A stretch of DNA of 64,000 bases. Origin: a virus (taxonomy: Duplodnaviria > Heunggongvirae > Uroviricota > Caudoviricetes). Numbering within the stretch: the first letter of the stretch is position 1; each line of letters starts with the position of its first letter. Shown here piece by piece: positions 26,332-64,000 of this stretch. The stretch lies in the IMG/VR virus record IMGVR_UViG_3300012663_000706; one strand, 5' to 3'. A program made the position numbers and the translations under genes. The notes beneath the pieces were generated by a model, which did not search any database, was not told the DNA's origin, and saw only the letters and a program-made list of their open reading frames with translations.

Positions 26332-26484
26332 TCATTTTACCCAATCATTATATGCGTTTGTGTATGCTTGTTCTATTGAAAGACTTGGATCTTGAGCGAT
26401 ATAGCTTTCAGCGAAAACTTTTACTTCCCACTCAAGACCCCATTCTTTTGCTTCTTGTAAGATTTCTTCTACGATTTCTGGCAT
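26332..26484 (-). CDS. small acidic protein (50 aa; MPEIVEEILQEAKEWGLEWEVKVFAESYIAQDPSLSIEQAYTNAYNDWVK)
   Basis: Its ATG overlaps the TAA of the RNase H-like gene (TAATG overlap). It fills an otherwise empty 278-nt gap and is too short for the ORF track. Confidence 0.45.
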   Translation of the reverse strand: MPEIVEEILQEAKEWGLEWEVKVFAESYIAQDPSLSIEQAYTNAYNDWVK

Positions 26485-32317: not shown

Positions 32318-34288
32318 TTACTTTTTAAATCTTTTTGCAAAAGACTCAGCCATACCATCCATGTTGTAAGGTAATGTAGATACTTTCTCTACAACTTTTT
32401 CTGAAACCATTTCAACTTTCTCCATTACTGTAGAAGTTTCTCTAAGGTCTCTTTGTTGCCAGAAGTTTCTTACTTGGTATTCTGTTTCTAATTTGTGATA
32501 TTTAGCTTGTGCTAAGATTTGATTCTTTTTAGCTTCAGATAAACGGTTCCAAGTTTCTCTGTATTCTGTTGGCATTGCTGCTAATACATTTGGTTCGTTT
32601 TCTACTGGAGCTCCAGCGATTACGTTATTCCATAAAGCGTAGATTTGAGATTCAGTTAAGAATCCTTTTCCATCAACTTTAGCGATTACGTTTGCTTTTT
32701 CTGCATCTGTTAAAGAATTAAATTCTTCTTTTTTAGCTTCAGAAATAAATGCAAAGAAATGAGGGTTGTTAGAAACTTTAACTGTAGCTTTTTCAACTAG
32801 AGCTTGTAACTTTTCAGAAATTTCTTTCTTGTAAGCGTCCATTCTGTCTACTTCTTCAGTAACTTCTTTACCAACGTTGTCTCCTTTTGGTTCTTTCTCT
32901 AAATCTTTTTCTAATTCTTTAGTACCGTCTTCAGCAGCGTCTTCAGCTTTTGGATAAACTTTACCATCAGCATCTACATCGTCTTCTGTTACGTCTTTTG
33001 CTCTAGTCTTAATATCTTCTGCAGGTAAACCAGCAGCATCAGCAGCTTCAGTAACTTCTTTACCAACGTTATCTCCTTTTGGTTCTTCAGCTAATTCATC
33101 TTCTAATTCTTTAGTACCGTCTTCAGCAGCGTCTTCAGCTTTTGGATAAACTTTACCATCAGCATCTACATCGTCTTCTGTTACGTCTTTTGCTCTAGCT
33201 TTAACATCTTCTGCAGGTAAACCAGCATCGGTATCAGCTTCAACAATTAGGTTTTTGTTAACATTTTCAGCAATGTATTCAGCGTATTCTGTAACTTTCT
33301 CTAGGTTCTCTTTTAAATAAGTAACATACTTCAACATGTTTTCATGTGTAGCTGCTCCATCGTTAAAAGCTTCTGCTAAATAATTAGAATATTCTTTTAC
33401 TTTGTTAACTGATTCAGCGATTTTTTCGCTATATTGAATAGACTGATCTACTTTCTCAGCGATATGATCGCCATGCTCGATAGATTGGTCTAATTTTTCT
33501 GCCATATAATTATTGTATTCAATTACTGAATTCATTTTTTCGGCAAGGTAAGATGAGTATTCTTTTAAACTTTCAACTTCTTTAGCAAAAGTATCATTGT
33601 TCTTTTCAGTAAGTGACTCTTTCAAACCCTTGATTTCGGTAGCTAAGTACTTAGAATACTTATTGAAATCTTCAGTGCTTACGAATCTTGATTGTTCCAT
33701 TTTATTTTCTGTGGTTTGTGTTTGGTTATTTTCTATGTTATTTATCTCATATATAAAAATGTCTCCACCATCTTCAAAACCTAACGCTTCATTTACTCTT
33801 TTCAATTCAGCATTAGCAAATCCTGGATCTGCAACTAAATCATAAGTAAACAATTGTTTGATTTTAACTTGGCCATTAGATTCAACTGTACCAGCTGCTC
33901 TTGAAGAAATATGAAGTGGAACACCAGCATCAACTAGTGCTTTAGCTTGTTTTCCGGCATCAGTATCTAATAATCTGATTTTGCCCATTACTTGCTTAGT
34001 ATCTTTATTGTAATTAAGTTCTTCAATAATGTGCGATACGTTTCTCAATGAAACATCAAAATTTTGTGGGTGATCTAATTCTCCTAGCAATTTAGATGAT
34101 TTAATCTTTGCTTGAAGCGCCTCGATCTGAGGTAGGTATTCGCTTTCAGTATAAATACGATTATTTCTGTTAAGTTTATCGATTTCACCGAAGCAACCTT
34201 CTAGTACGTAAGCACCAGATTCCTCTTGTTTAAAAGCCAGGGTAGTACCTGATCTTTCTAAAATGAGTAATTTACTATTATTGGTCAT
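32318..34288 (-). CDS. prohead core protease (gp21-like) fused to an acidic scaffold-like domain (~656 aa; the track starts at a GTG at 34300)
   Basis: The N-terminal ~170 aa align to T4 gp21 (LGELDHP with LGELNHP; GVPLHISSRAAGTV with GWIPGVSSRGLGSL). The C-terminus is a coiled-coil, highly acidic region with an internal tandem duplication. Confidence 0.75.
   Translation of the reverse strand: MTNNSKLLILERSGTTLAFKQEESGAYVLEGCFGEIDKLNRNNRIYTESEYLPQIEALQAKIKSSKLLGELDHPQNFDVSLRNVSHIIEELNYNKDTKQVMGKIRLLDTDAGKQAKALVDAGVPLHISSRAAGTVESNGQVKIKQLFTYDLVADPGFANAELKRVNEALGFEDGGDIFIYEINNIENNQTQTTENKMEQSRFVSTEDFNKYSKYLATEIKGLKESLTEKNNDTFAKEVESLKEYSSYLAEKMNSVIEYNNYMAEKLDQSIEHGDHIAEKVDQSIQYSEKIAESVNKVKEYSNYLAEAFNDGAATHENMLKYVTYLKENLEKVTEYAEYIAENVNKNLIVEADTDAGLPAEDVKARAKDVTEDDVDADGKVYPKAEDAAEDGTKELEDELAEEPKGDNVGKEVTEAADAAGLPAEDIKTRAKDVTEDDVDADGKVYPKAEDAAEDGTKELEKDLEKEPKGDNVGKEVTEEVDRMDAYKKEISEKLQALVEKATVKVSNNPHFFAFISEAKKEEFNSLTDAEKANVIAKVDGKGFLTESQIYALWNNVIAGAPVENEPNVLAAMPTEYRETWNRLSEAKKNQILAQAKYHKLETEYQVRNFWQQRDLRETSTVMEKVEMVSEKVVEKVSTLPYNMDGMAESFAKRFKK
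32857..33244 (-). repeat. near-perfect tandem duplication (~192-bp unit, two copies) inside the protease/scaffold gene
   Basis: Two copies of ...GLPAEDVKARAKDVTEDDVDADGKVYPKAEDAAEDGTKELE..EPKGDNVGKEVTE..., with near-identical nucleotide blocks visible. Confidence 0.7.
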
Positions 34289-34351
34289 ATGTTTAGACAC
34301 TATGTTTGTTTATATATCTGATTGATTTTTTGATTTTTTAAAAAAATCGCA

Positions 34352-34699
34352 TTAAAGGCCTGCAAGGTCAGCACTTGGATCTTCCGCTCCATCATCTTCT
34401 TTCTTTCCGTCCTCTTCCTTTTCTACTTCTTCCTTGTTTTCCTCTTCTTTAGATTTATTATAGAAATCTTTCAATTTAGACATTTCAGCAATCTGGAAGC
34501 CATCTTGACCGTATGTTGCGAAGAAATAATCTTCAAATTCTTTTTCAGTAGCAGATGCAGCAATAGCTCCTAAGATTTCTGCAGCCTTGATAGTTTCACC
34601 GTTTTGCAGTAATATATCATCTACATACACTTTAGAGTCTTCAGCCTTTAGAGCTTCTGCTTCTAGTACGAATTGTTCAAATGTTTTTAAGTTTTTCAT
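34352..34699 (-). CDS. small acidic protein (115 aa), possibly a prohead core protein (gp67/68-like position)
   Basis: Lies between the portal and protease genes, as T4 genes 67 and 68 do. It has a Glu/Asp-rich C-terminus. Confidence 0.35.
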   Translation of the reverse strand: MKNLKTFEQFVLEAEALKAEDSKVYVDDILLQNGETIKAAEILGAIAASATEKEFEDYFFATYGQDGFQIAEMSKLKDFYNKSKEEENKEEVEKEEDGKKEDDGAEDPSADLAGL

Positions 34700-46322: not shown

Positions 46323-47519
46323 TTAAAATAATGATGATGAATAAATTAAGTTTCTATTTAATGTTTGTAAACCAATCGACTGAAGTATTCTGTTCAATGG
46401 ATCGATCATTGTTTTTTCAAATTGTATTTCATAATCTACTGGAGGTGCTATCTCATAAGGATGGTCTCCTGGAAAGTATGCGAACATTTCGCAAGTTCCG
46501 TGTATGCAATGATACAATTTAAGTTTTTCTCCATTACCAATCAACTTGTACTTATTTTTATACTTTCCATTGTTGTTTAATAGGTAATTGTAGAATCCTG
46601 CGGCTTTTACATTCGGTGGACATTTAGATCCATACTGGAATTCGATATGATCGTCGACAATATATTTCTCAATATTGTTTGTTCTCTTATTGAATGTAAT
46701 ATCATCAATATCTGCCATTTTAAATTCTTTCTTAGTCTTTTTTAGGAATGTTACCAATTTACTAAGAGTTTCTGCATTAGGTTTTTCAGTAAAAAGTAAT
46801 TGAATTACTTCAGTTAATTTTTTACGGATAAATGTAGGAGAAGAAGATTGAATTGAATCAAAGCCGACAACTTTTACTTTTTTCAAAGGTTTGTGGCGTT
46901 CATGTCCTTTTAGTTTATCATCCCATGCAAGTTCTTGGATGTATTTCTTTTTGGCCATCCAAATACCATTATATGCAATCGATTCAAGTTCAAATTCTAA
47001 GAAAGAATCTGTGTTTGTGTTCTCTGCATACTTATCTAAGGCCTTTACAATATACGCCTTGATACGCATATTATAGATTGCTAAGATAAATGTAACAATA
47101 TCCATTTGTTCGCCATGCCATTCGATTGATTCGTACATTTCTTGAAACTGAACATAGTTCGAATCAGTATCAATGTAAATTACGGCTTCTTTGTGGATTG
47201 CTTTCTTAACGGAAATATTCAGCTTCTTGTGAACTTCAGTATCTTTAATAAAGAATTCTTGGAAATACTTATTAAGTATCTTTTCAGAATACAGAATCGC
47301 ATTTTGTCCTTGTAATGTAATAGACTCAGCGATGTTAATATTAAAGAAGTGAAACCACTTGTTACCAAAGGCTCCATAGATCGAGTTTAACGTTACTTTT
47401 ACAGCTTGCTCGTAAGCTGTGAACTTGGCCGACTCATTTTTGTAATAAGTGGCCAAGTCTTGAAGCTGTTCTTTTGTAAGTTCACTCTCAGGTTTCTTTA
47501 ATAGTTCATCAATTGTCAT
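46323..47519 (-). CDS. family-B DNA polymerase, C-terminal fragment (motifs B and C; 398 aa)
   Basis: Motif B KVTLNSIYGAFG and motif C YIDTDS. The start is translationally coupled (TAATG) to the upstream 248-aa gene. Confidence 0.8.
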   Translation of the reverse strand: MTIDELLKKPESELTKEQLQDLATYYKNESAKFTAYEQAVKVTLNSIYGAFGNKWFHFFNINIAESITLQGQNAILYSEKILNKYFQEFFIKDTEVHKKLNISVKKAIHKEAVIYIDTDSNYVQFQEMYESIEWHGEQMDIVTFILAIYNMRIKAYIVKALDKYAENTNTDSFLEFELESIAYNGIWMAKKKYIQELAWDDKLKGHERHKPLKKVKVVGFDSIQSSSPTFIRKKLTEVIQLLFTEKPNAETLSKLVTFLKKTKKEFKMADIDDITFNKRTNNIEKYIVDDHIEFQYGSKCPPNVKAAGFYNYLLNNNGKYKNKYKLIGNGEKLKLYHCIHGTCEMFAYFPGDHPYEIAPPVDYEIQFEKTMIDPLNRILQSIGLQTLNRNLIYSSSLF

Positions 47520-51104: not shown

Positions 51105-52514
51105 CTAGACGCTCTTAGATTCTGCAAGTTTTTTATAATATTCTGACTTTTCGAATAGCTGGTAAGAAGTTGACTTATACTGCTTTCGTTTGTTATATAA
51201 GTCTGTAAGAATTTGTTTTAACATCGAGTCTTCTTTGTTATAAACAACTCCATTCTCGCAAACAATTACATTTTTATCTTTTCTGCGTTCTTCAATTTTT
51301 GCAGCTGGTACCTTTTCGATATATGAATCCGGTGAGATATTAAACTGACGCATGATTGAAGGATATAGGGATGCAAAGTCAAATGCACTTACTCCAGCAT
51401 AGAAACCAACTTTAGGTTCTTTAACAAATGCTCCTGCAAATTGTGTATCTTTTACACCATCATCTCTTTGCTCTGTTCCGATTCTTAATCCATCTTCTGC
51501 CATTTTTCTGGCAATTAAGGCTTCAGTTACAGCAACCGGAGATGCTGCTTTATAAATTGGCATTCTAGTAATGTTTGCCAATGTTAAAAGAACTTCCATT
51601 GATTTTAATTTCTGGTCAATAAAATAAACCAGCACTGAATCGACTACGTTATAATAAACATACTTTTTAAAATCATCACGATACAGGTCTTGTAAACCAC
51701 CGTTGTATTTGATTTTTCCAATACCAAGAACTTGGCCAGAAACATAATCAAGCGAATTAGATTCTTTTACTTTTACAGATTTATCATATTTGTCATACAA
51801 TTGCATGTAATCTAGAATACCCATGTGAAGTGGTCTAGAATCTGTTGGGTCGAGTGCTTTCGTGATTGCCGATTCAGCGATATCGATTTGTAAATGTTTA
51901 CAACGATTAACGATATATTGCCAGTCATAGTTAATAAAGTTCCAACCTGACATCATTGGGAATTTAGGCATAAATTTATACAAGAACGTATAAACCATGT
52001 CATATTCTGTTTTAAACTTTATGTATTGAAAAGTCCAGTTAACTCCAAATTGTTTAAAATAATCATTAGTATCTTTTTCAATTTGGGAAATTTGATCAGC
52101 ATCAAGGTCTTCTAAACCTAATACGATTGTCTTTCCGTTTGGCGTAATAATAGAGAATGTTAGAATACGAGATTTTGCTTCTTCTGCTCTTGGAAAACCA
52201 TCAACAATTTCTGTTTCAATATCGACAAAATAAGTCTTTGGCATATTGTATGCATAAATCTCTTCTTTGTCCTTTTCAGGGAGACTATCCATAAAATATA
52301 CCAAAGAGAATTTATTGAACTGACGAGAGTTTTGTAATTTAACCGATCTTCCATCCCAATTTTTAACTTTGGTACTTGAATCTCTTTCTTTGGCATCACA
52401 AACTGCCCAATTTTGGTATTGTGGAATTGGGTATCTTTTAAATGCTACTTCTCCTGCTGGATTGTAGTATGAAACCATTATTTCCTTATCTCGTTGTTCT
52501 ATATCTAATAGCAT
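51105..52514 (-). CDS. family-B DNA polymerase, N-terminal fragment (3'-5' exonuclease plus motif A; 469 aa)
   Basis: Exo I FVDIETE, Exo II NYDWQY, Exo III YYNVVD and motif A DFASLYPSIMRQFNISPDSY, which nearly matches T4 gp43 DLTSLYPSIIRQVNISPETI. Confidence 0.8.
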   Translation of the reverse strand: MLLDIEQRDKEIMVSYYNPAGEVAFKRYPIPQYQNWAVCDAKERDSSTKVKNWDGRSVKLQNSRQFNKFSLVYFMDSLPEKDKEEIYAYNMPKTYFVDIETEIVDGFPRAEEAKSRILTFSIITPNGKTIVLGLEDLDADQISQIEKDTNDYFKQFGVNWTFQYIKFKTEYDMVYTFLYKFMPKFPMMSGWNFINYDWQYIVNRCKHLQIDIAESAITKALDPTDSRPLHMGILDYMQLYDKYDKSVKVKESNSLDYVSGQVLGIGKIKYNGGLQDLYRDDFKKYVYYNVVDSVLVYFIDQKLKSMEVLLTLANITRMPIYKAASPVAVTEALIARKMAEDGLRIGTEQRDDGVKDTQFAGAFVKEPKVGFYAGVSAFDFASLYPSIMRQFNISPDSYIEKVPAAKIEERRKDKNVIVCENGVVYNKEDSMLKQILTDLYNKRKQYKSTSYQLFEKSEYYKKLAESKSV

Positions 52515-53003: not shown

Positions 53004-53429
53004 TTATTTATTGTTTTTTACAAATTTCTTATAATCTTCGATATAATTTCTGATACGATCAGAACCGACTGGATTCATTGAGTGTACATAAAAATTAGGT
53101 ACCTCGATATTGTTATCTTGACAGAATTCTACTAAGAATTTAGCACAATCTAAACCTGTTTTTTCTTCAAATTCAGTTGGATAATCATCAGCATCTCCGC
53201 AAGTTGGGCTGTAATGTTCATCTGCTAAATCATGGTCAAATGATACTGTTGCAGGAATTCCGTTTGTTTTAATCCATTCAACAAACTCATCATAGTTTAC
53301 TACTATGTCCCAGTCTAGTTGAGTGTAGATTGCGGCACTAGTTCCAATTCGGTGAGGCATGTAACCCATGCAGTCGTGTGGAATTCTAAAATCGTCTAAG
53401 AATAAATTTTTATTGTTTGTTCTTTTCAT
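53004..53429 (-). CDS. hypothetical protein (141 aa)
   Basis: ORF with an LFLDDFR...FDHDL pattern. Unassigned. Confidence 0.4.
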   Translation of the reverse strand: MKRTNNKNLFLDDFRIPHDCMGYMPHRIGTSAAIYTQLDWDIVVNYDEFVEWIKTNGIPATVSFDHDLADEHYSPTCGDADDYPTEFEEKTGLDCAKFLVEFCQDNNIEVPNFYVHSMNPVGSDRIRNYIEDYKKFVKNNK

Positions 53430-53452: not shown

Positions 53453-54493
53453 TTAGAAAAGAGCATTTTGTTCAAAATTATTATTAAAGAAATATTCCAT
53501 TAGAGAATTATCAGCTCTTGCAACTTTTCTTCGATTAATTAGATGTGGGTTACTTCTTAGTCGGTAATAAACTCCGTACTGACAAAGTCCTACTTCGCAG
53601 CCGTATGTTTTTAAATCGTCTTGCTCGTCTTGAAAAATCTTCTTGCCATTTACTTCAACATTATGCGTTGATTCATGTAGAGGAATATCTCCAATTAGGT
53701 CTTTGTAGTTCTCTCTAAACCAAATTACTCGATCACCGTATGGAATTGTGCAATCTTCACCAAACATTAAGTCTAATGTAAATCTAGCTCCTGGTCCTGG
53801 TACACAGAATCTTTCGTCATGATTAACATTAATTCTTGGATTTACCGAATTGGACGTTGAGCAGTGATACCCGTAGTACTGTCCTACACCTTCTAGCGAG
53901 GACATAATTTCATACATCTCGCTTAAAGAATTAACCTGGGCCATCCTTCCAGTGATTCCTCTAGGTATAAATGACGCTACCCATAATAAAATATTAATTT
54001 TATGAGCATCTCGTTCCTGGTTTCTGGTTTGGGCAACATAAGTATTGGCTGCGCCGAATAAACTTGTACGTAATTCTGTACTTCCGTAGATCGGCAAACC
54101 TAAAGAAACTGCGTCTTCTAAATTCTTACGAATTTTATTTTCATATTCTCTATCAACTAAAAGTCTTTCGAAATCAACTAAAGCTGTTTTAGGATTTGGA
54201 TCTCTTGTTAGGATTTGGTGAATTCCACGAGCTCCGTAAAAGTGAGAAATAATCGTATTGCAGATAATATTGTCCATTGAGATTGGAGCATATACAATAT
54301 TCTCCATGATATATCTCATACGGTCATCTAGAGTAATTTGTGGGTGGAAGTATTCTACTGTTTCTCCTAACGCATCGTCTCCGTCGCTACTATAAGTATC
54401 TAGAACACCCATATTGTAGAGAGCTCTTTCATTAACTTTGTTAAAGAATCTACCGATATCTTTAACCACTTCCATATTTACTCTATCTCTCAT
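53453..54493 (-). CDS. hypothetical protein (346 aa)
   Basis: ORF only. Confidence 0.4.
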   Translation of the reverse strand: MRDRVNMEVVKDIGRFFNKVNERALYNMGVLDTYSSDGDDALGETVEYFHPQITLDDRMRYIMENIVYAPISMDNIICNTIISHFYGARGIHQILTRDPNPKTALVDFERLLVDREYENKIRKNLEDAVSLGLPIYGSTELRTSLFGAANTYVAQTRNQERDAHKINILLWVASFIPRGITGRMAQVNSLSEMYEIMSSLEGVGQYYGYHCSTSNSVNPRINVNHDERFCVPGPGARFTLDLMFGEDCTIPYGDRVIWFRENYKDLIGDIPLHESTHNVEVNGKKIFQDEQDDLKTYGCEVGLCQYGVYYRLRSNPHLINRRKVARADNSLMEYFFNNNFEQNALF

Positions 54494-54502
54494 TTTTAAT
54501 TT

Positions 54503-55171
54503 TTATTTTGTGAACCAACAATCGTAACCTGCTACGCTTTGAAATACTATTAATTCTTTAATGTGCTGCTTTGGGTATAACGCTGTTAATCTTTCTAATG
54601 TAGGTTGCGCATATTGTTTAACTTTACCCATGTGCAATTCTACGAATAGAGCTTCTGGTTGGTATGCTTCTACAAATTCTATAATTTGATATTCAGCACC
54701 TTCAATATCGATTTTAATAATATCTGGTTGATATTTCTTTAAAAGCTCGCTAATATGAATGTTAATAACTTCATCGTAGTCGGTAAATTTGCTACGTTTC
54801 ATAATAGAAACTGAACAATGCGCTTGTTGGCTATTACCCTTATAGATTCTAATAGAAGGTGCTGTACTATCCGATACTGCAGCATGAATTATGTTTGCTT
54901 TAGGTTCGTCTGCAAAACTTTCTGCCATTTTTTCATAATTGCGAATATCGCATTCTACAGTATAAACTGCTTTAGCTCCTCCGTCAATTGCTACTTTAGT
55001 AAAACCTCCAACATTTCCACCTAGATCTAAACAAACTTTATCAGTAAAGTCTATTTCTGGAGTCATGTAATTAGTAATACAATCAACAATCATGTTTTTG
55101 TCAACTGATTCTGTCGCATTTAAATACTTAATGTATTTTCTTTTTAATTCTCTTTGTACTGGTGTCAGCAT
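54503..55171 (-). CDS. SAM-dependent methyltransferase (FkbM-like, 222 aa)
   Basis: Rossmann motif I VCLDLGGNVGGFT, followed by acidic motif II. Confidence 0.6.
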   Translation of the reverse strand: MLTPVQRELKRKYIKYLNATESVDKNMIVDCITNYMTPEIDFTDKVCLDLGGNVGGFTKVAIDGGAKAVYTVECDIRNYEKMAESFADEPKANIIHAAVSDSTAPSIRIYKGNSQQAHCSVSIMKRSKFTDYDEVINIHISELLKKYQPDIIKIDIEGAEYQIIEFVEAYQPEALFVELHMGKVKQYAQPTLERLTALYPKQHIKELIVFQSVAGYDCWFTK

Positions 55172-55177
55172 AATCTG

Positions 55178-55588
55178 TTATTTTTCTACTAAGTTTGATA
55201 CTATATGAACTATATCTAGTTCTGGATGTGCTTGTTTGATTACTGCCATTTGAACCTCATCATCTTCAAAAAATCTAACAACTTCAACTCCATCTTTTTT
55301 CAGATCAGAAATTGTTTTGGCTTTATGTTTTCCGGAAAAGATTCTAGCTTCTACGGTATGGTCTCCTCTTTCTGCTAATGTCATTTGATTAAAATAAACA
55401 TTAGTGGCAATATTAAGTTCTGCTAGTTTTTCAAAAACATAAGGTGCCTCTTCTTGGCATCTTCCTGTTATGATAACATCATCACTGAATCTTGGTCTAA
55501 TACCAAGGGAAACTACTCCATCAAAATCGTATGCGTATATTTTATGTGTCATTGGTTTAAATTTTAACCATTTCCTGAATATTGACAT
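55178..55588 (-). CDS. HAD-superfamily phosphatase (minimal, 136 aa)
   Basis: Motifs in order: I YAYDFDGVV (DxDG), II VIITGR, III Lys (GKHKAK), IV FFEDDE. Confidence 0.55.
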   Translation of the reverse strand: MSIFRKWLKFKPMTHKIYAYDFDGVVSLGIRPRFSDDVIITGRCQEEAPYVFEKLAELNIATNVYFNQMTLAERGDHTVEARIFSGKHKAKTISDLKKDGVEVVRFFEDDEVQMAVIKQAHPELDIVHIVSNLVEK

Positions 55589-55597
55589 GGCTGTAAA

Positions 55598-55635
55598 TTA
55601 AAAAGATGGAGAATCGCTTCTCCATCTTAGTTTTT
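55598..55635 (-). terminator. rho-independent terminator after the MIPS gene
   Basis: AGATGGAGAA-tcgc-TTCTCCATCT (10-bp stem) flanked by A and T runs. Confidence 0.7.
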
Positions 55636-55638
55636 GAA

Positions 55639-56820
55639 TTAAGCTCCTTTAACCTGTTTAGCAGTAACCGTTGTTAGTTTGCGGTGAGCTAATGCTTCGC
55701 ATTCTTGAACAGCGTCTGTAAACATCATTTGTTGAGGAGGTGTTTTTTGTGTGAAAGCAGAAGGACCTCTTAAGGCTCCAACTATTCCCATTTCTCTTGC
55801 AACTCTTAAGTAACGAAGGGCATCGATTACAACTCCTGCGGAGTTTGGAGAATCTTGTACTGAAAGTTGAGCATCAAAGATTACTGGTGCTCCACCAAAT
55901 CCTTCAAGTTCTAAACGGAAGTTAGCAACTTTATTATCTCCATAATATGAGATATACTCAGAAGGACCAGCATGAAGGAATGAACCTTCGGTTGCAATTC
56001 CACGTATTTCGTTTTGAGCACGAATTACGTTTTCTTTAGAAATCTTTTTAGATTTCAAACGAGTTTTGTCTTCCATATTCAAGAAGTCAGTGTTACCACC
56101 AACATTACGTTGAATGTGTGCTTTTACAACATGTCCTCTTTCGAATGCAAGTTCTTGTAACATTTGAGACAAGATAGATGCACCAAATTGAGAACGCATA
56201 TCGTCACCAATTAATGGAATACCTGCGTCGATAAAACGTTTCTCCCATGCTGGATCAGATGCGATAAATACTGGAATACAGTTTACTAAAGAGATTCCAG
56301 TTTCTAGACAGATTTCAGCCCAAAATTCTGTAGCGTTTTGAGAACCTACTGGTAAGTAGTTAATCAATACTTCTACTTCATGTTCTTTTAATTGAGCAAT
56401 AACTCTGTCTTTCCAAAGACGAGACTTTTTATCAGTCCAGTCTGTGCGATTCATTTCTGATGAATTTCTCAATTCTTCAGAAACTAAGAAACGATTTGCT
56501 TCTGGATATGCATCCATTAACAATGCGTAACCATCAATTACTGGAGCTTCATAAACTGGAGCTTCTGATGTAATTGTTTCAACAATGTTCCATGCTGAAT
56601 TTGGTTTTTGCTTCAAAGCAACTCCTAGAGGTTGATTAACTTTACGTTCATCGATATCAAATGCGCAGACAAATTCAATGTCTTTTGCAGTGTAACCACC
56701 GATGTCGCTTCTCATCATACCGTCGATGTTTGCTTGGTTTTCAGTGTAGAATTGTACTCCTTCTACTAGAGACTTGGCGCAGTTTCCTGTTCCAATGATT
56801 GCAACTTTGATTTTACTCAT
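55639..56820 (-). CDS. myo-inositol-3-phosphate synthase (MIPS) family protein (393 aa)
   Basis: The N-terminal VAIIGTGNCAKSLVEGVQFY matches the NAD-binding start of bacterial Ino1 (VAIVGVGNCASSLVQGVEYY). The length is typical. Confidence 0.6.
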   Translation of the reverse strand: MSKIKVAIIGTGNCAKSLVEGVQFYTENQANIDGMMRSDIGGYTAKDIEFVCAFDIDERKVNQPLGVALKQKPNSAWNIVETITSEAPVYEAPVIDGYALLMDAYPEANRFLVSEELRNSSEMNRTDWTDKKSRLWKDRVIAQLKEHEVEVLINYLPVGSQNATEFWAEICLETGISLVNCIPVFIASDPAWEKRFIDAGIPLIGDDMRSQFGASILSQMLQELAFERGHVVKAHIQRNVGGNTDFLNMEDKTRLKSKKISKENVIRAQNEIRGIATEGSFLHAGPSEYISYYGDNKVANFRLELEGFGGAPVIFDAQLSVQDSPNSAGVVIDALRYLRVAREMGIVGALRGPSAFTQKTPPQQMMFTDAVQECEALAHRKLTTVTAKQVKGA

Positions 56821-56866
56821 GGTTTTCGTAATTTGTTTAAGTTATACGTGATTTTTATTAAATGTT

Positions 56867-57922
56867 TCAAAATAGGCTTACTACTTTTGGTTTAGGTGTT
56901 GGTTTTTTCTTCTTCTCTCCAGTTTCAAAATCATATTGATAATATTCTCTAGAAAGGTGAACTGAACCAGGCTTTTCCATATAAGTGTCGGCATAGTCTT
57001 TAGGACTTATATTGTACCATTCAATAGGCCATTCGATTAATTCGAACCCGGCCTCACTTAGATATATACTCAGCTTTTTGTTGAAAATTCGACAGATTTC
57101 CAATCTTTTTTCTAATGAACCATAAAATGGAGTTTTCTTATAGAATCCAGTTTGTGGAATTCTTCTCTCTTCATGCTCGATTGGAAGTAATTGCATAACA
57201 CTAATCTTTTCGATGTTTAATGTTTTTAACTGGTCAACATAGTTTTTAACTAGTTCTTCAGTTGCTTTTACTGGATCGGCTTGGCGGCATAAATGATGTC
57301 TAATATCGATATTGCCAAAATAAGTTACTAAATGTTTGGTGCCTTGTGGTACATATGTACCGATACCCTCTTTAAGGATTCCAAATAATGTTTTACCATC
57401 ATTTCTGGAAATATCGGCTCCGGGAATATAAGCAGATACTGAATGGCTATCACCTAGTACAAAGGTACCGTTGTTAAGGGTTAAATCAATAGTTTCTACT
57501 GACTTTGCTCTTGATGACAGGAGTTCAACGTCTAAAGCTTTCCAGTTGTCTGTACATGATGACATTCTACTTTGTGCAAAAACACCAACGTCTGGCATTT
57601 GTCTATTAAGACAATATACTTCTCCTTTAAAATCAATAAATCTTTGAATTCTTGCGGCTGGTTCATCTCCTGCACCGCCAAAAAGATTGTAACTACCTTG
57701 GAATTCCATCGGTAAGGCTACCATCCAAACGTCAAAATCATGAATGTTTCCGTCTTTTGTTAAGACAGTAACATCTAATCCTAGGCTTTTTAGTTGGGAC
57801 ATTAATAAATATGTCCATGCTGATTTGTGAGATTCTGGTCTAGAGCTGTAAGTTGTTACAACATCATCAATTGCAATTTTCTTGCCGACCAAACTATCCT
57901 TTACATCATAGATACTAATCAT
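56867..57922 (-). CDS. hypothetical two-domain protein, C-terminal SGNH/GDSL-hydrolase-like (351 aa)
   Basis: FVLGDSHS (GDS block I), a Gly block and GNID..HH. The call is weak. Confidence 0.3.
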   Translation of the reverse strand: MISIYDVKDSLVGKKIAIDDVVTTYSSRPESHKSAWTYLLMSQLKSLGLDVTVLTKDGNIHDFDVWMVALPMEFQGSYNLFGGAGDEPAARIQRFIDFKGEVYCLNRQMPDVGVFAQSRMSSCTDNWKALDVELLSSRAKSVETIDLTLNNGTFVLGDSHSVSAYIPGADISRNDGKTLFGILKEGIGTYVPQGTKHLVTYFGNIDIRHHLCRQADPVKATEELVKNYVDQLKTLNIEKISVMQLLPIEHEERRIPQTGFYKKTPFYGSLEKRLEICRIFNKKLSIYLSEAGFELIEWPIEWYNISPKDYADTYMEKPGSVHLSREYYQYDFETGEKKKKPTPKPKVVSLF

Positions 57923-58845: not shown

Positions 58846-59310
58846 TTAATTGTCTAATGTTTTTAATTTCTCAAACATGAATTGCTCGAACGTTTTAACC
58901 GGCTTTTCAGCATTTTTAGCTTCTTTCTCGCGTTGTTTACGTCTTTTCTTTTGCTCTTCATATTCGTCTTCTGCCCAACCAGCTCCGGCTGGAACATCTC
59001 CAGAACCAACAGCTCCTTTTGCAAATGATGGGGGAAGTTTAATGTGTCCCATACCAGCTCCCGGCATCATTGTGCTTTGAGGACCTCCAGTATTTACAGC
59101 AAATCCCATTGATGCTTCTTTAACCTCTTCAGGTAAGCCTTCATGAGAAGTCTCTGCAAAATCTTTAAGTTGTTGTACTGTCATAGAGTTTATTAAGTCT
59201 TCCACCTTGTCGCGATATTCTTCTCCAACGTCAGAAAGTTGCATATACCCTTTTTTAACGGCGTATGCAACTCCCATAAGTCTTTGTTGTGTTTTGCTTG
59301 TAGCTGGCAT
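58846..59310 (-). CDS. hypothetical protein (154 aa)
   Basis: ORF. It has a Gly/Ala-rich middle region and a basic C-terminus. Confidence 0.4.
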   Translation of the reverse strand: MPATSKTQQRLMGVAYAVKKGYMQLSDVGEEYRDKVEDLINSMTVQQLKDFAETSHEGLPEEVKEASMGFAVNTGGPQSTMMPGAGMGHIKLPPSFAKGAVGSGDVPAGAGWAEDEYEEQKKRRKQREKEAKNAEKPVKTFEQFMFEKLKTLDN

Positions 59311-59318
59311 CTTATTAA

Positions 59319-59867
59319 TTATTTTGCGTCGATTGTTAAGAATACAGAACTTCTAATTTCAATATTGTTTCTACCAACTAGTTTATCGTAAGATCCTACA
59401 ACTTCGGTTTCTCTTCCAGTCATAAGAGCATCATTCATCATTCCATCTAGTTTTCTAGAGAATTTAGAACCATCAGCATCATCTGCAAAACCGATATTAA
59501 TTACGAAATCGCTAGGAATTCTAACTAATAATTCTGATTTTCCAGGTGCGTTGATACCTTCAACATCATCAACTACCCATAAAGTTTTACTTAGAGTAGC
59601 AGTGATATAAACAACTGCTTCTTTGTCCTTAACTTGCTTCATTACCTCTTGTTCGATAATTTTAGCTCCGTCTTTATCGGCCCATTTTGTCCAAACGTCA
59701 TTAAGTTCTTCTAGTGTTGCGTCAGAATCTCCTTCGTATTTAACTCGTTCTACCTCTTTCTTAAAGGCAAATGCTACTTTTCCTATAATACCTTTGGCTC
59801 CGTAGATTCCAGTTAACTGGTACGCCTTTTCATTTATAAATTGTTCGAATAATTGTACGTGTTTCAT
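59319..59867 (-). CDS. hypothetical protein (182 aa from the MKHV start; the track's GTG extension to 59921 is rejected)
   Basis: The ATG lies 7 nt downstream of the stop of the cysteine-rich micro-ORF. Confidence 0.4.
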   Translation of the reverse strand: MKHVQLFEQFINEKAYQLTGIYGAKGIIGKVAFAFKKEVERVKYEGDSDATLEELNDVWTKWADKDGAKIIEQEVMKQVKDKEAVVYITATLSKTLWVVDDVEGINAPGKSELLVRIPSDFVINIGFADDADGSKFSRKLDGMMNDALMTGRETEVVGSYDKLVGRNNIEIRSSVFLTIDAK

Positions 59868-59874
59868 GATTATT

Positions 59875-59949
59875 TTATTTTTTATTACAATCGCAGCACG
59901 CGCAATCACAAGATTGTCCACAATTACATATAGTGCAGTTACATTTCAT
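59875..59949 (-). CDS. cysteine-rich micro-protein, 24 aa (MKCNCTICNCGQSCDCACCDCNKK), metallothionein-like with CxC motifs
   Basis: ATG to TAA with 9 Cys among 24 codons, in CNC, CNC, CDC and CCDC arrangements. It sits 19 nt after the upstream gene stop and 7 nt before the next ATG. Confidence 0.5.
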   Translation of the reverse strand: MKCNCTICNCGQSCDCACCDCNKK

Positions 59950-59968
59950 ATTGGTTTGGTTTTATTTA

Positions 59969-61288
59969 CTACCAAGCGTAGTTTAAGTTGTCAACTTTCT
60001 TCAAGTAATCTTGAATATTTTTAGCGCGCTGTCTCATGCTACCTTCGTAGTAAGAACCACCGTAACCTGCTGCAACTTCTTTTTCTTGATTAACTGCATC
60101 TCCAACGTATCTAGAGTATTCGTCTAAGATATTTCTCATTAGGTTTGCAGCATCGTTCATTTTAACTTCTCTTCCTTTTGGATCTAGACCAACAATAAGT
60201 TCATCATATCTTCCTTTTAAGCCTTTAGCGATACCATCTTTGATTTGATCAGCGATAGTTTCGATTGCTTTTGATACAAGAGAATCTAATGGTAATTCAG
60301 CTGCTTTAGTAGCTAGAATATCATTATATCTTCTAATGTTTTCTGCTTTAAAATCTTTATCGCTTTGGAATGCAGTTGCTCCTCTTTTAGCATCAGATCT
60401 TTGTGACTGTAACTCGCTTGTAGAATATCTTGCTCTAAGAATATCTAAGTCTAAGCAATAAGCTCTATCAGCAAGTTCAACAACTTGTTTTAGACTTGAG
60501 ATTTTAGAACCATAACTTGAGTTTGCAGAAGATTTTGCAACTCCTGCTGAATCATCTCTTTTAGTTACTTTTAAAGTTCTAGCTCCGCGTCTTTGCCATT
60601 CAGCATTCATCCATTCGTTTTGACCATTAGTAATTGCTAATAGTGTATTTGCTAGGATTGTTCTAGTCGACCAATCGCTTGCAGAATATGGATTCTCTTT
60701 TTCATTTGTCGTGAAATAGAAATATACAGCATTAGCTCTTTTTTCTTTTTTAGCAGTTTCTGGATCCATTTCGATAATATCGACATCTTGGATTTTATCT
60801 AGTGCTAATTTTGACATTTGGTAAAATGCTTTTGGAAGATCCTTTGGCATTTTTTCAGCACCAACTAAAAGACCTGCAAGTTTTGAAGATGCAAATGCTT
60901 CATTTAATTTATTATTCTCGATAAATTCTGAGAATGATTCTACTAATCTATTCATTTCAAATGATTTTTTATTTTGAGTTTTATTTTCTTTCTTTAATTG
61001 AGAATAAATTTTTAATCCAGCTTTAGATAGAGTAATTCCATCTTCAGATAGGTTAAAATAATGGTTGTTTCTTTTTAACCATCTTTTCTGGTCTTCAGAA
61101 ACCTTTGTAAGAATCAAATTAAATTCTTCTTTGGTTAATTTACCATCTTTGATAGCTTCGATAACTTTATTCCTGGTAGTAGCATGAGTTGATGCTAATT
61201 TAGCAGGATGAAGTTCTGTATATTTTCTCTTTAGAGTAATTGCAGCTTCATTAAGATTCGATTCGTTAATAAATTCGTTAAAATCCAT
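59969..61288 (-). CDS. hypothetical protein (439 aa)
   Basis: ORF. A late-type CGATATATAGA motif lies about 25 nt upstream. Confidence 0.4.
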   Translation of the reverse strand: MDFNEFINESNLNEAAITLKRKYTELHPAKLASTHATTRNKVIEAIKDGKLTKEEFNLILTKVSEDQKRWLKRNNHYFNLSEDGITLSKAGLKIYSQLKKENKTQNKKSFEMNRLVESFSEFIENNKLNEAFASSKLAGLLVGAEKMPKDLPKAFYQMSKLALDKIQDVDIIEMDPETAKKEKRANAVYFYFTTNEKENPYSASDWSTRTILANTLLAITNGQNEWMNAEWQRRGARTLKVTKRDDSAGVAKSSANSSYGSKISSLKQVVELADRAYCLDLDILRARYSTSELQSQRSDAKRGATAFQSDKDFKAENIRRYNDILATKAAELPLDSLVSKAIETIADQIKDGIAKGLKGRYDELIVGLDPKGREVKMNDAANLMRNILDEYSRYVGDAVNQEKEVAAGYGGSYYEGSMRQRAKNIQDYLKKVDNLNYAW

Positions 61289-61321
61289 TGTTATATTCTT
61301 GTTTTTATAGTCTATATATCG

Positions 61322-62776
61322 TTATTTCATTTTAAAACCTAACTTACCATTACCTGGATTGGTAGATGATACATTCGGTGCTTCAAATGATAGTTTTGCA
61401 TTAGCGTCGCTAAATCCTTTTAAATAGAAATGGATAATATCCTTTTTAAGGTCTACGTCCATATATAATTGTTTAACGTCTAATTTACCAACGATTGTTC
61501 TTAGAGTACTGATATACATATCTCCAGCTCCAAGTTTACCGTTTAATGCGTCAATAAGTTCCAAACTTAATGAATAACTAAATAGACCAATATATTTTTT
61601 ACCTTTGTCTAACTTATCCCACTGCACCTTATCAAATTTAGCAACTCCTCTTCCAGAAGATTGAACTAATGGTACAACGTACGTGCTAAAGAACTCTTCT
61701 TTTCCAAGTTCATTCATTTTAGTTTGTATAAAACTTTCCAAAGATTTTTCATCTAGTGAAATGTTTCCAACTAAACCTTTTAATATAGCAACTGTTGGAG
61801 TATTAATAAATTCAGCTCCTTTAAGATAACCGTCAACTACTGAATTTGCTTCGACTATTTTAAATAAGTCGTATAATTGAACTTCTGCCGTTTCAGTAAA
61901 ATTTTCAGCTTTTAGATTCTTGATAATATTAGTAAGAGTTGGTGCAGCACCTGATTTATATTTTGAAGATATACCATATCCATCTATATAAAAGTCGACT
62001 AATGGATTATTTCCAGAAGGAAATGAAATTCCCTTTTCGGTTTTTACCATGTTTAATAATAATGCTGCTCCTAAAACTTCACCAAAGTCTTTACCAATCG
62101 TATTTAAATCTGCTGATCCAAGAGCATCGATTGCCTCTCTAACATTTTCATCATAACCGATAGTTTCTGCAAAAGCAGAAAGAGCTAAAGGATCGGTAAA
62201 GAAATTAGTCGGTTTGTGCATTGAAACCAAATCGTAAAGTTCAGTTAAGAAACTTTGCATGAAAAGATTAGAACTGTATTTACTAGTGATTGCGGCTTTA
62301 ACACTACTTGCTAATGATGAACTATTCATATCAACATCTTGTGGTAATTTAAGAGAAGTAGGTGTTAGTTCTTTAGATTTGATTGAACCCTTTGGAGGAT
62401 TATTATCAACGAATTTAATAACATCTCCTTTCGAAGCTTTTATTGAATCTACATCTTCTCCGAAAGTTACAATAAAAGTTGTGAATTTTCCGGAATTCGA
62501 ACCGTTTGAATATTCTCCAGGAGCGGCTGTTGTAATGTCGAAATTAGTTGCTCCTACTTTATTTAAAGCGTCTGATATTAATTTTAAAGCATTTTTAGAA
62601 TCTCCACCTAAATCAAATCTAAGATCTTTTCCTCCATTCTTTGTATTAATTCTACCGCTTCCTAATATTTTTTCCATAGCAGGAAGTACAGTACCTTCAA
62701 TTGTTCTTGCAGATTCATTTAATAAATCCATTGCTAATTGAAATCTTGCTCTAATATCTCCGTAAGTTTGTGCCAT
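61322..62776 (-). CDS. hypothetical protein (484 aa)
   Basis: ORF. Its start overlaps the stop of the NMNAT-like gene (TAATG). Confidence 0.4.
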   Translation of the reverse strand: MAQTYGDIRARFQLAMDLLNESARTIEGTVLPAMEKILGSGRINTKNGGKDLRFDLGGDSKNALKLISDALNKVGATNFDITTAAPGEYSNGSNSGKFTTFIVTFGEDVDSIKASKGDVIKFVDNNPPKGSIKSKELTPTSLKLPQDVDMNSSSLASSVKAAITSKYSSNLFMQSFLTELYDLVSMHKPTNFFTDPLALSAFAETIGYDENVREAIDALGSADLNTIGKDFGEVLGAALLLNMVKTEKGISFPSGNNPLVDFYIDGYGISSKYKSGAAPTLTNIIKNLKAENFTETAEVQLYDLFKIVEANSVVDGYLKGAEFINTPTVAILKGLVGNISLDEKSLESFIQTKMNELGKEEFFSTYVVPLVQSSGRGVAKFDKVQWDKLDKGKKYIGLFSYSLSLELIDALNGKLGAGDMYISTLRTIVGKLDVKQLYMDVDLKKDIIHFYLKGFSDANAKLSFEAPNVSSTNPGNGKLGFKMK

Positions 62777-63894
62777 TATATCTTATTTATAAATTGTTCG
62801 AAGGTTAGTATCTCTAAATCTTGATTTGTTTCATTAGATTCATTTGCTATAGAATAATCTAATTTATCCTTTAGTGTAAGAAACATTGAGTGCATTGAAT
62901 GTGGCGTCATTTTATTAAACTCCTTAGAGTTACCATCGATCAACGCCTGTCTTACCTTGGTTGCTGATATATCATCATCACCTCTTTGGATTTCGTACAA
63001 CCCGAATTCAGGGAGTACACCCAGATCTTCACGATATTTGTCATTGTTAACCATATATCCGTATGCCTTCATTCTATCAGTTCCGGTTCCCCAAAGTACT
63101 GGTTCGAAATTTGGTCTTAGCTCATTAAACATTACGTCAATGGCTGCAGATGGTACAACAATTACTTGCTTTAGGAATTTGTATTCAGATTGAACGTTGT
63201 TAAACATTTCAATTTGCGTTTCAACGTCGTAAGGACGTTTAACAGCATCTTCCTTTTTAGAAGTTTTTGATTTAACTAGGAATACAATAACTGGATAACC
63301 ATTTTGTTTGTTAAGAGTTTCTAAAACTTTAACATGTCCTAAGGTAAATGGTTGGAACCTTCCAACAAAAATATTAACCTTCTCTTTACCTTGCTCTGGA
63401 TAATCTATCTTAAGAGCTTCAGTAATTTTTTGGCTATTTGCTACTTTGTCGTGGACAATATAGTTTTTAAAATCATGAACATGATTTTCATCTGTAGATT
63501 CTACAAATATCTTTTGTTCGATTTTATCGATAATTTCATTAATTTGAGTAAACACAAGTCCTGTTATGATTGATGTTTCTTTAGTTCTTTTCTTTCTTAG
63601 GCTACCTAAGATGATTTTGTAAAGTTCTGCCAAAACTGGGTTTTCTAAATATTTAAGAGTTGTTTCATTCTTAATATAATTAGTGTTTAATTGGAATGAT
63701 TCAACCGTTGAAAAGTTAGCTGAATCGAATTTAGCTCCTACATATTTAAAAGCGTTTTGATTTAAATATTGGTTGTAGATTGCAGAAACTAGTTCAATGT
63801 ATCTTAATTCAGAATTTTCTTCGCTAAGTTCAATTTCATCGAAATTAAAACCATTTAAAAATTCTAATAAGTCTACAATAGTAATTTGGTACAT
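62776..63894 (-). CDS. two-domain protein with a C-terminal NMN/NaMN adenylyltransferase-like nucleotidyltransferase domain (372 aa)
   Basis: GRFQPFTLGH matches the archaeal NMNAT signature GRFQPFHKGH ((H/T)xGH class). The downstream ISATKVR resembles the NMNAT SGTEIRR motif. The N-terminal ~170 aa are unassigned. Confidence 0.55.
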   Translation of the reverse strand: MYQITIVDLLEFLNGFNFDEIELSEENSELRYIELVSAIYNQYLNQNAFKYVGAKFDSANFSTVESFQLNTNYIKNETTLKYLENPVLAELYKIILGSLRKKRTKETSIITGLVFTQINEIIDKIEQKIFVESTDENHVHDFKNYIVHDKVANSQKITEALKIDYPEQGKEKVNIFVGRFQPFTLGHVKVLETLNKQNGYPVIVFLVKSKTSKKEDAVKRPYDVETQIEMFNNVQSEYKFLKQVIVVPSAAIDVMFNELRPNFEPVLWGTGTDRMKAYGYMVNNDKYREDLGVLPEFGLYEIQRGDDDISATKVRQALIDGNSKEFNKMTPHSMHSMFLTLKDKLDYSIANESNETNQDLEILTFEQFINKI

Positions 63895-64000
63895 GTGACT
63901 TGATTCTCTTTCCTCTTTTGTTTCAACATCTCTATCAAACGCTTCTAATTTAAAGGTTTTGATTTTAGTGCTATCAACAAAAGAAACGATTAATCCGTCA

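Follow-up and report, generated by a model that had tools for sequence, protein, structure and literature searches.

An RNA-ligase-type module fused to a HIGH-superfamily nucleotidyltransferase, and a capsid-targeting-like peptide, in a gene cluster of a T4-like aquatic phage

A phage locus and the question it raises

Does a phage gene with the signature of an archaeal nicotinamide mononucleotide adenylyltransferase (NMNAT) belong to a pathway of nicotinamide adenine dinucleotide (NAD+) salvage, or to something else? The question is raised by a group of genes near one end of a 64-kb stretch of viral DNA (IMG/VR record IMGVR_UViG_3300012663_000706; this whole stretch is called the window below, and all coordinates are window positions). 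A preliminary description of the sequence had proposed that a 372-amino-acid (aa) NMNAT-like protein, with its 484-, 439- and 182-aa neighbors and a Cys-rich peptide, makes up an NAD+ salvage or anti-defence module. We found instead that the gene encodes a 619-aa fusion of an RNA-ligase-type module, a helical domain and a C-terminal nucleotidyltransferase domain of the HIGH superfamily, and that most proteins of the cluster share a short peptide that resembles the capsid-targeting sequence of phage T4. We consider it the most likely role of these proteins that they are enzymes of nucleic-acid repair or processing, packaged in the phage head and injected into the host, although our confidence in this picture as a whole is only about even.

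The source phage is a T4-like aquatic myovirus of ∼230 kb. All genes of the window are on the minus strand, and they include those for the gp23 capsid protein (PF07068), the gp20 portal (PF07230), a gp21-type prohead protease (PF03420), the gp18 sheath, the gp17 terminase and gp15, and a replication set (gp46/47-like proteins, gp41 helicase, UvsX, gp44 clamp loader and an RNase H-like exonuclease), together with a split family-B DNA polymerase and a ribonucleotide reductase. No DNA similarity to the window was found among cultured phages; at the protein level, the relatives among deposited phages are limited to uncultured genomes of 462–484 kb, Microcystis phage Mel-JY01, cyanophage C48C1 and the HIGH domains of cyanophages. 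The order of the genes beyond the window end is seen in a contig that is 98–99% identical (L001): gp32, primase, UvsW, 909-aa, 427-aa, 619-aa, 484-aa, 438-aa, 182-aa and DUF3008, with a stop codon of the 427-aa gene that precedes the 619-aa start by 1 nucleotide (nt). The genes studied here make up the downstream part of this conserved cluster (909, 427, 619, (484), 439 and 182 aa, and DUF3008), and the start of the operon is outside the window, as the 909-aa and 427-aa genes precede the fusion gene in L001.

Domain structure of the fusion protein

The reading frame at 62776–63894 (minus strand) encodes 372 aa if it is read from its first ATG, at 63894, which is the length given in the preliminary description. 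Upstream of this ATG no stop codon interrupts the frame up to base 63999, where the last complete codon of the window lies, and the 99% identical homologue on a 233-kb metagenomic contig (P0001; ERZ18655032 scaffold_6) has 619 aa, so the 372-aa frame is the truncated end of a longer gene and its length is an artefact of the window edge; the next 100 or so homologues are 617–629 aa long. The first 212 residues, which make up most of the RNA-ligase-like domain, lie beyond the window, and the N-terminal domain of ∼170 aa that had been left unassigned turned out to be the helical middle domain of the larger protein.

The AlphaFold2 (AF2) model built from 42 homologues (mean predicted local distance difference test score, pLDDT, of 76) has three domains: an alpha/beta domain at residues 1–235, with a pLDDT of ∼80–94 over most of its length, the helical domain, and a Rossmann-like domain at residues 418–600. 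In a Foldseek search against PDB, the N-terminal part matched RNA ligases only at E ≤ 1e-3. The best matches are fungal Trl1-LIG (3.7e-7) and T4 Rnl2 (4.6e-7), and further matches are the adenylyltransferase domain of Candida Trl1, Naegleria Rnl (NgrRnl), T4 Rnl1, REL1 and archaeal Rnl3. For Trl1-LIG, T4 Rnl2 and NgrRnl the Foldseek probability is 1.00 (E from 3.7e-7 to 1e-4), and T4 Rnl1 and REL1 follow at E ∼5e-4 to 7e-4 (with a probability of 0.99 for Rnl1); there is no DNA ligase or capping enzyme among the top 50 matches. The alignments to full-length T4 Rnl2 have 363–375 columns (gaps included) for a chain of 317–319 residues; these alignments and that to the Trl1 adenylyltransferase domain exceed the length of their targets and so probably extend beyond the nucleotidyltransferase core.

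Residue K31 (in VVTEKIAAPS) is invariant in the 42 homologues, whose mean column identity is 68%, and it ends a strand like motif I of ligases. F92-G93-F94 followed by D or E (FGF(D/E)Y), D213-G214-L215 and K229 are conserved and are found on those strands where motifs III, IV and V would be expected, which we placed by eye without structural superposition; D213 and K229 are also invariant. A profile search of 1.84 billion cluster representatives retrieved 1189 relatives, and in the distant ones motif I, where it could be located, is mostly the canonical EK[MLI][DSN]G[ST]xF. The N-terminal part is thus a complete module with the covalent-nucleotidyltransferase fold and the motif-I lysine, and its assignment as a putative RNA ligase rests on the fold search and on motif I. 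The fold assignment of the 619-aa protein is more secure than the overall function that we propose for the cluster.

A capsid-targeting-like peptide in the cluster proteins

A peptide with the consensus (K)T[FY][EQK][QE][FY][ILV]xE is found in most proteins of the cluster, either at one of the termini or at a joint between modules (Table 1). There are six terminal copies in the window where ∼0.4 are expected, and none of 500 shuffles reached six. In the fusion protein the peptide forms the C-terminus behind a linker (pLDDT below 50 for residues 600–609): T611 is invariant and F612–F615 are at least 90% conserved in an alignment of the protein (alignment A1), and 41 out of 52 distinct C-termini of its homologues match a strict form of the pattern. 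The copy is at the N-terminus in the 439-, 182- and 115-aa proteins of the window and in the 427-aa (TYKEFLLE) and 122-aa (MKTFEQYLLE) proteins of L001. The peptide is kept across divergent homologues with substitutions that are conservative at the protein level; in long fusion relatives it is found at the joints between modules, as is expected for polyproteins that are cut in the prohead. A repeat or regulatory element at the DNA level was considered and is ruled out by these conservative substitutions and by the different codons used in different copies.

A peptide of this kind is familiar from T4: in its genome (NC_000866), the internal proteins IPII and IPIII start with MKTYQEFIAE and IPI with MKTFKEF. 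The peptide matches the T4 sequence at its functional positions (aromatic residues at 4 and 7, I/L at 8 and E at 10), as targeting in T4 needs residues 4 and 7, processing needs residues 8 and 10, and gp21 cuts after L/I-x-E (PMC9026906). A C-terminal propeptide is known in T4 Alt and is a precedent for a C-terminal tag (PMC9026906). The window also encodes a likely protease for such sites: a 660-aa prohead protease with a tail of ∼460 aa, in which [LI]xE is found 3.35 times per 100 aa (the window mean is 1.26) and YxxY[MLI]AE repeats start at residues 258, 300 and 335. For comparison, T4 gp21 has roughly 212 aa. The 660-aa protein, presumed to be both processing enzyme and scaffold, may be a protease-scaffold fusion. 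Finally, a cyanophage homologue of the HIGH domain, the T4-GC190 cytidyltransferase of P-RSM4, starts with MKKFNAFLIEA, and mass spectrometry of purified S-SM1 virions revealed T4-GC190 (PMC3037559).

Could the peptide be something other than a packaging signal? The proteins may be cytoplasmic RNA/DNA repair enzymes, with the FEQFI peptide as the docking motif for a shared hub, of the cell or of the phage, or for the assembly of a multi-enzyme complex. Its occurrence at N-termini, at C-termini and at domain junctions would fit a generic tether, and the genes are found among those for UvsW, gp32 and primase (upstream) and DNA polymerase (downstream). We nevertheless find this explanation unlikely, as the peptide agrees with the T4 sequence at exactly the four functional positions, is also found in an open reading frame (ORF) of the head module and in the protease-scaffold protein, and has a counterpart in a cyanophage homologue that is a virion protein. 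The sliding clamp, one conceivable hub, is an unlikely one, as the putative clamp-binding tails of this phage are different (..SSSLF in the family-B polymerase fragment and ..INNLF in the RNase H-like protein).

The HIGH-superfamily domain and NAD+ salvage

The C-terminal domain belongs to the HIGH superfamily: PF01467 (Cytidylyltransferase-like) matches with 33.4 bits (cut-off 21), and the two signatures reported in the preliminary description are present, GRFQPFTLGH at 63334–63363 and ISATKVR at 62950–62970 (both on the minus strand). They correspond to G425–H434 and S557–R562, which are conserved in the 42 homologues: T431, G433, H434, S557, A558, T559 and R562 are invariant, and L432 and I556 are at least 90% conserved.

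NMNATs are the nearest named relatives by sequence, and so far the earlier reading of an archaeal-type NMNAT stands. A profile search of PDB gave the archaeal NMNAT MJ0541 (8.4e-5) and NadM (1.4e-3), with no match to PPAT, GCT or CCT up to E = 10, so the domain does not align better with glycerol-3-phosphate or CTP cytidylyltransferases, and the best named matches in NCBIfam are also NMNAT families. Residues D500, F503 and N504 (D-x-x-F-N) align with D, F and N of DIEFNS in M. jannaschii NMNAT MJ0541, and distant relatives have HNGH or HKGH, some of them the exact archaeal GRFQPFHKGH. Membership in these families is another matter: the scores of the NMNAT models (TIGR01527, NF002243, PRK05379 and NadR) are 30–32 bits, 4- to 13-fold under every equivalog cut-off (127–409 bits), and the E-value of the PHROG NMNAT family is only 4.5e-5. 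In all 42 close homologues, Thr (T431) stands in place of the first His of HxGH. TxGH is likewise found in PPAT. R507, three residues after N504 and also invariant, occupies what we take to be the position of the nicotinamide-stacking Trp in archaeal NMNAT. The structure comparison does not separate PPAT from NMNAT: Foldseek with the C-terminal part gave PPAT (1.5e-5), archaeal NMNAT (4.5e-5), and then FAD synthetase and NadM, with E from 1.5e-5 to 1e-3 for PPAT, NMNAT and FAD synthetase and target-normalised TM-scores up to 0.67. The domain is NMNAT-like but cannot be filed as an NMNAT; by sequence comparison, its relatives include archaeal NMNAT and T4-GC190, the core 'cytidylyltransferase' of cyanophages.

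If the HIGH domain were a true NMN adenylyltransferase, the cluster could rebuild NAD+ against NAD+-depleting immunity of the Thoeris or DSR type. Phages do encode NadM or NadR together with NadV, and NadM was always accompanied by NadV in the phages surveyed (PMC9503650). The known phage pathways of NAD+ reconstitution pair NadV with NadM or NatV (NARP2) or Adps with Namat (NARP1). Here, no match to NadV/NAMPT, Nudix, Prs-like, Namat, Adps or other NAD-pathway families was found in the proteins scanned from the 64 kb of the window and 10 kb upstream. The scan used Pfam on window ORFs of at least 300 aa, the smaller cluster proteins and six ORFs from the 10 kb upstream (in L001), PHROGs on most of these proteins, NCBIfam on the four proteins of the finding and PADLOC on the cluster; the negative applies to these proteins, out of a genome of 233 kb. 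PADLOC had no match on nine proteins of the cluster and its relatives. An NMNAT alone cannot rebuild NAD+ from ADP-ribose and nicotinamide, and the domain is fused to an RNA-ligase fold, elsewhere to nuclease-like modules and not to NAD enzymes. We consider the reading as a true NMNAT in an NAD+-rebuilding cluster quite improbable for these reasons. The cluster is not a recognisable NAD+ salvage pathway, and the neighbors, suspected earlier to be the missing partner enzymes (such as a phosphoribosyl- or ADPR-transferase), are not NAD enzymes: the 484-aa protein looks nuclease-like or pol-beta-like, and the others are unassigned modules with capsid-targeting-like peptides. The anti-defence part of the earlier proposal may still hold, by way of the injection of head-packaged enzymes.

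Proposed function

We propose that the proteins of the cluster are nucleic-acid repair or processing enzymes delivered from the head. They would dock on the scaffolding core of the prohead, a gp21-type protease would trim or separate them at [ILV]xE sites, and they would remain inside the head until injection, when they would reach the host together with the DNA. In the host cell, the ligase core may act on broken or modified nucleic-acid ends, most likely of RNA (e.g. a tRNA cut by host nucleases), working with the 427-aa partner described below and, where present, with the nuclease- or nucleotidyltransferase-like module of 484 aa, while the HIGH domain might supply the ligase reaction, by synthesis or recycling, with an AMP donor or acceptor such as an adenylylated nucleotide or an NAD-like dinucleotide. 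A wider form of the proposal is that T4-like aquatic phages, cyanomyoviruses included, use the conserved peptide to fill the head with a 'first-responder kit' of enzymes, often as protease-cut polyproteins; the kit, a ligase-like core fused to or paired with a HIGH nucleotidyltransferase, which various phages combine with nuclease-like and further modules, would be injected and would repair or rewrite RNA/DNA ends before phage gene expression, for example after attack by an anticodon nuclease. We put this wider form forward tentatively, and doubt it more than we believe it.

Several observations weigh against the proposal. In this clade motif I is EKIAAPS, without the usual DG, and in ∼11 distant cluster representatives Q, M or N replaces its lysine, so ligase activity is not assured. 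There is no match at E ≤ 0.1 to curated ligase families (Pfam, PHROG and NCBIfam), and a comparison of the 619-aa family with T4 Rnl2 by hhalign did not reach significance (probability of 0.3%). For the 427-aa partner, Pfam, the profile search of PDB and hhalign are all negative with respect to ligases, and its ligase-like motifs are placed by eye only. No canonical enzyme of RNA end healing (Pnkp) adjoins the cluster genes. As to packaging, the copy of the peptide in the 619-aa protein is C-terminal and lacks the cleavage Glu, and the tags of both this protein and the DUF3008 protein are C-terminal where the experimentally defined T4 sequence is N-terminal. The detection in virions concerns the homologue T4-GC190 only, and the phage studied here is known from sequence alone. 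The cluster also sits among replication genes, as described above, and outside the structural module. The specific substrate, including that of the HIGH domain, is less secure than the overall proposal.

The loss of DG in this clade and of the lysine in some relatives, together with the virion location of the cyanophage homologue, could also mean that the ligase-like domain is catalytically dead and that the protein serves mainly as a structural or scaffolding component of the head or as an assembly chaperone, like T4 gp63/Rnl1 in tail-fibre attachment, and not as an enzyme in the host; this is the least probable of the explanations considered here, as the invariance of K31, D213, K229, T431, G433, H434, S557, A558, T559 and R562 at a mean identity of 68% argues for retained catalysis and repeated fusion to nuclease-like modules suggests a chemistry of nucleic acids.

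Neighboring genes

The gene contexts were compared in 80 related viral loci. The 427-aa gene, outside the window, is upstream of the fusion gene in all 72 loci that could be evaluated (directly adjacent in 67), and it is a conserved partner of the fusion protein. The pair is even kept, at ∼34% identity, in the 462-kb uncultured phage LR756500.1, where the 484-, 439- and 182-aa genes are missing, and in a protein of Microcystis phage Mel-JY01 (WWT39297.1, 639 aa) a 427-like domain is fused behind a HIGH domain of the GRFQP type. The 427-aa family has invariant EKxDG, RNK, NxE, EGxVF and KLTG, which by eye look like ligase motifs I, Ia, III, IV and V. Homology of the 427-aa protein to the ligase domain of the 619-aa protein, T4 Rnl2, DUF6267 or any PDB chain was looked for and is not detectable.

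The reading frames of the 484-, 439- and 182-aa proteins, like that at 62776–63894, are where the preliminary description had placed them, all on the minus strand, and the translational coupling of the 484-aa gene that it suggested is plausible from the overlap of one base. This gene follows the fusion gene in 14 out of 78 loci, and relatives with 80% identity lack it. It is an accessory gene, yet its link to the fusion gene is real: seven cluster representatives have a 484-like module in one protein with the ligase core (E from 2e-23 to 9e-132). In cyanophage C48C1, such a module precedes the cytidyltransferase by two genes. The 484-aa protein resembles nucleases or nucleotidyltransferases of the pol-beta type, with K229, D230, E233, D261, S270 and K272 as candidate catalytic residues; a PD-(D/E)xK nuclease, with E ... 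D ... (D/E)xK on an alpha-beta-beta-beta-alpha core, is among the candidates considered for it. Membership in RlaP (PF10127, with its G[GS]..DxD signature) was considered and is not supported, and a Foldseek search with the model found nothing in PDB below E = 0.5. Profile searches of PDB were empty for both the 484-aa and the 439-aa families, and the 439-aa protein has no family match either. Homologues of the latter are 411–1037 aa long; in 64 of 67 loci a member of this family lies downstream of the fusion gene, at a distance of up to 6 kb, and its N-terminal module is fused in front of a HIGH domain in six cluster representatives.

The Cys-rich peptide seen in the preliminary description is a real ORF of 24 aa with nine Cys. 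It is mobile, as it is missing from L001 (98–99% identical), and a restrictive degenerate pattern found relatives in 41 viral contigs (L091–L131). The micro-protein family has the pattern MKCNCxxCNCGxSCxCxCC[ND]C (21–22 aa). Elsewhere, the ORF is found among small genes that start with MDNFDLKKYLAEG or MKLxDIILxE and are leader-peptide-like, and twice it is directly after the gene of a prohead protease (L099 and L118). The peptide may be metallothionein-like or head-associated.

Two genes that lie 7–9 kb from the cluster encode a protein of 141 aa (53004–53429, minus strand), labeled cREC_REC (PF20274) in the precomputed annotation of an identical contig, and a small HAD phosphatase (55178–55588). 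Phosphoesterases of the cREC type have been proposed to clear 2',3'-cyclic phosphate ends for RNA ligases (PMC7824862).

Table 1. Positions of the fusion gene, its domains, the cluster genes and the capsid-targeting-like peptides in the window
Feature	Position	Strand	Evidence or remark
Fusion gene, 3' two-thirds (residues 213–619 of 619)	62776..63999	-	Open frame; P0001 homologue
Helical middle domain (residues 247–400)	63436..63897	-	All-helical in the AF2 model, confidence below that of the flanking domains
HIGH-superfamily (cytidylyltransferase-like) domain (residues 418–600)	62836..63384	-	PF01467 and profile matches
LTFEQFINKI, C-terminus of the 619-aa protein after a flexible linker	62779..62808	-	Conservation in alignment A1; AF2 model
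484-aa accessory protein	61322..62776	-	ORF; predicted fold confident but unassigned; start overlaps preceding stop by one base
439-aa two-module protein	59969..61288	-	ORF; N-terminal peptide and a second copy between modules
MDFNEFINE, N-terminus of the 439-aa protein	61253–61288	-	Second copy SFSEFIEN..LNE at residues 117–130, between modules
24-aa ORF with 9 Cys, MKCNCTICNCGQSCDCACCDCNKK	59875..59949	-	In the gap between the 439-aa and 182-aa genes
182-aa protein (200 aa from an upstream GTG, 182 aa from ATG)	59319..59867	-	ORF
MKHVQLFEQFINE, N-terminus of the 182-aa protein	59820–59858	-	Motif in 20 out of 22 distinct homologue N-termini
154-aa DUF3008 protein	58846..59310	-	PF11450, 1.2e-9
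KTFEQFMFEK, C-terminus of the DUF3008 protein	58861–58899	-	Motif scan
115-aa ORF starting with MKNLKTFEQFVLEA	34352..34699	-	Between the portal (PF07230) and protease (PF03420) genes
660-aa prohead protease (gp21-type domain at residues 13–194)	32318..34300	-	PF03420, 8e-12; PF20034

Other features of the window

Mapping of the T4 late-promoter consensus (TATAAATA) was considered for the timing of expression and is uninformative: there are seven matches in the window where 10.5 are expected. A few sites lie just upstream of gene starts, including that of the 484-aa gene, where the site (62784–62791, minus strand) is 7 nt ahead of the start and falls within the stretch that encodes FINKI at the C-terminus of the 619-aa protein. 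Over the window as a whole, the consensus shows no enrichment.

A likely cluster for thymidine hypermodification is found at 53453–57922 (minus strand). It encodes a protein with the helical domain of 5-hmdU DNA kinase (PF18723, 2e-13), an FkbM methyltransferase, a small HAD-like phosphatase (DFDGV), a protein like myo-inositol-1-phosphate synthase (PF01658, 2e-22) and a 351-aa protein (phrog_13881/17781) that is fused to the kinase-like part in other phages. The family-B DNA polymerase is split into two parts (46323–47519 and 51105–52514, minus strand), between which are the genes for the alpha and beta subunits of ribonucleotide reductase and a 248-aa ORF. The C-terminal fragment of the polymerase (46323–47519) ends with ..YSSSLF and the RNase H-like exonuclease (26484–27707, minus strand) with ..IINNLF, which are probably the tails by which proteins of this phage group bind the sliding clamp.

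Just downstream of the gp23-like gene is a 440-aa ORF (29309–30631, minus strand) without a Pfam match, whose N-terminus (..KKLNFESWYSNILEA) is propeptide-like with an ILE/A cleavage site; it may encode a vertex or decoration protein. Other features on the minus strand are a tRNA-Ser(UGA) (12375–12463), a Band-7/SPFH protein (6064–6987) and two large Laminin_G_3/concanavalin-like proteins (424–4377), which are probably tail fibres.

Significance

RNA ligases, HIGH nucleotidyltransferases and the T4 capsid-targeting peptide are each known, and for their combination our search of the open-access literature turned up no earlier account. We found no account there of a fusion of RNA ligase and cytidylyltransferase (HIGH) domains or of its nuclease-like fusions, none of DUF6267, none of capsid-targeting sequences in cyanophages or otherwise outside T-even phages, and no report of an injected RNA ligase. 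Injection of other proteins is well documented, and the Dar proteins of P1 are an example. RNA polymerases are injected by N4 and by phiKZ-like phages, and polyvalent proteins with ART and GNAT domains have been proposed to be injected (PMC7824862); T4 injects the ADP-ribosyltransferase Alt and the restriction inhibitor IPI* (PMC9026906).

If our proposal is true, a very abundant group of aquatic phages delivers enzymes of nucleic-acid repair or processing with the genome, RNA repair enzymes join the known injected anti-defence proteins, and there is a role for the virion 'cytidylyltransferase' that is core to marine cyanophages and has long been unexplained. It gives a testable hypothesis for T4-GC190 and its neighbor DUF6267. 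The results suggest that the T4 capsid-targeting peptide is conserved far beyond T-even phages; ejected proteins of metagenomic phages could then be predicted by a sequence rule, and the peptide could be used in engineering as a packaging tag. They are also a warning that 'NMNAT-like' HIGH domains of phages are not to be read as NAD+ salvage without pathway partners.

Comparison with known systems

The cyanophage T4-GC190 (P-RSM4 YP_004323319; PHROG 395/3041) shares with the fusion protein GRF(Q/N)P(F/P)T(L/I)GH and (I/M)SA(T/S)K(V/M)R (hmmsearch with the A1 profile, 2.2e-10; tblastn, ∼28% identity), the capsid-targeting-like peptide and an adjacent partner with ligase-like motifs (DUF6267). 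It differs in that it has no RNA-ligase module and its tag is N-terminal, and DUF6267 has no detectable homology to the 427-aa partner. DUF6267 (T4-GC71) is near the virion cytidyltransferase in both P-RSM4 (L090, 3782–4777) and C48C1 (L006, 9209–10432); its ligase-like motifs, seen by eye, are SVKWDGAPA, EG[FY]V and K[IL]VDR, and the C48C1 copy starts with MMLDFKNFITE, which is capsid-targeting-like.

T4 Rnl2, Rnl1 and Trl1 share the fold of the ligase-type module (Foldseek E from 3.7e-7 to 4.5e-4, probability 0.99–1.00), the order of motifs I, III, IIIa, IV and V on matching strands (by eye) and an all-helical domain after the nucleotidyltransferase core; Trl1 also has a second catalytic domain behind its ligase. 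In contrast to these ligases, the 619-aa protein has no sequence-level match to them, its motif I is without DG in this clade, what it appends is a HIGH nucleotidyltransferase instead of a kinase or phosphoesterase, and there is no adjacent partner of the Pnkp type. Archaeal NMNAT, NadM, phage NatV (NMNAT-Nudix) and NARP2 have in common with it the HIGH fold, GRFQPF, ISxTxxR and D-x-x-F-N; the differences are the sub-cut-off scores, TxGH, the lack of Nudix and NadV, and the other fusion context.

The T4 internal proteins IPI, IPII, IPIII and Alt share peptide positions 4, 7, 8 and 10 and a gp21-type protease, and they too are diverse, unrelated cargoes with the tag alone in common; Alt, an enzyme that T4 injects, has a propeptide at each end. 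The cargoes here differ in being 180–900 aa or more in size, with polyproteins among them, in having tags that are also C-terminal or internal, and in that their packaging is a prediction. A last parallel, one of architecture, is with the polyvalent proteins of phages and conjugative elements (Iyer et al. 2017, PMC5512222): relatives of our fusion protein are polyproteins of 800–1290 aa in which ligase, HIGH, nuclease-like and other modules are joined by short linkers, whereas in the window the modules are separate genes. Polyvalent proteins are described as injected with the DNA in a survey of jumbo phages by the same group (PMC7824862).

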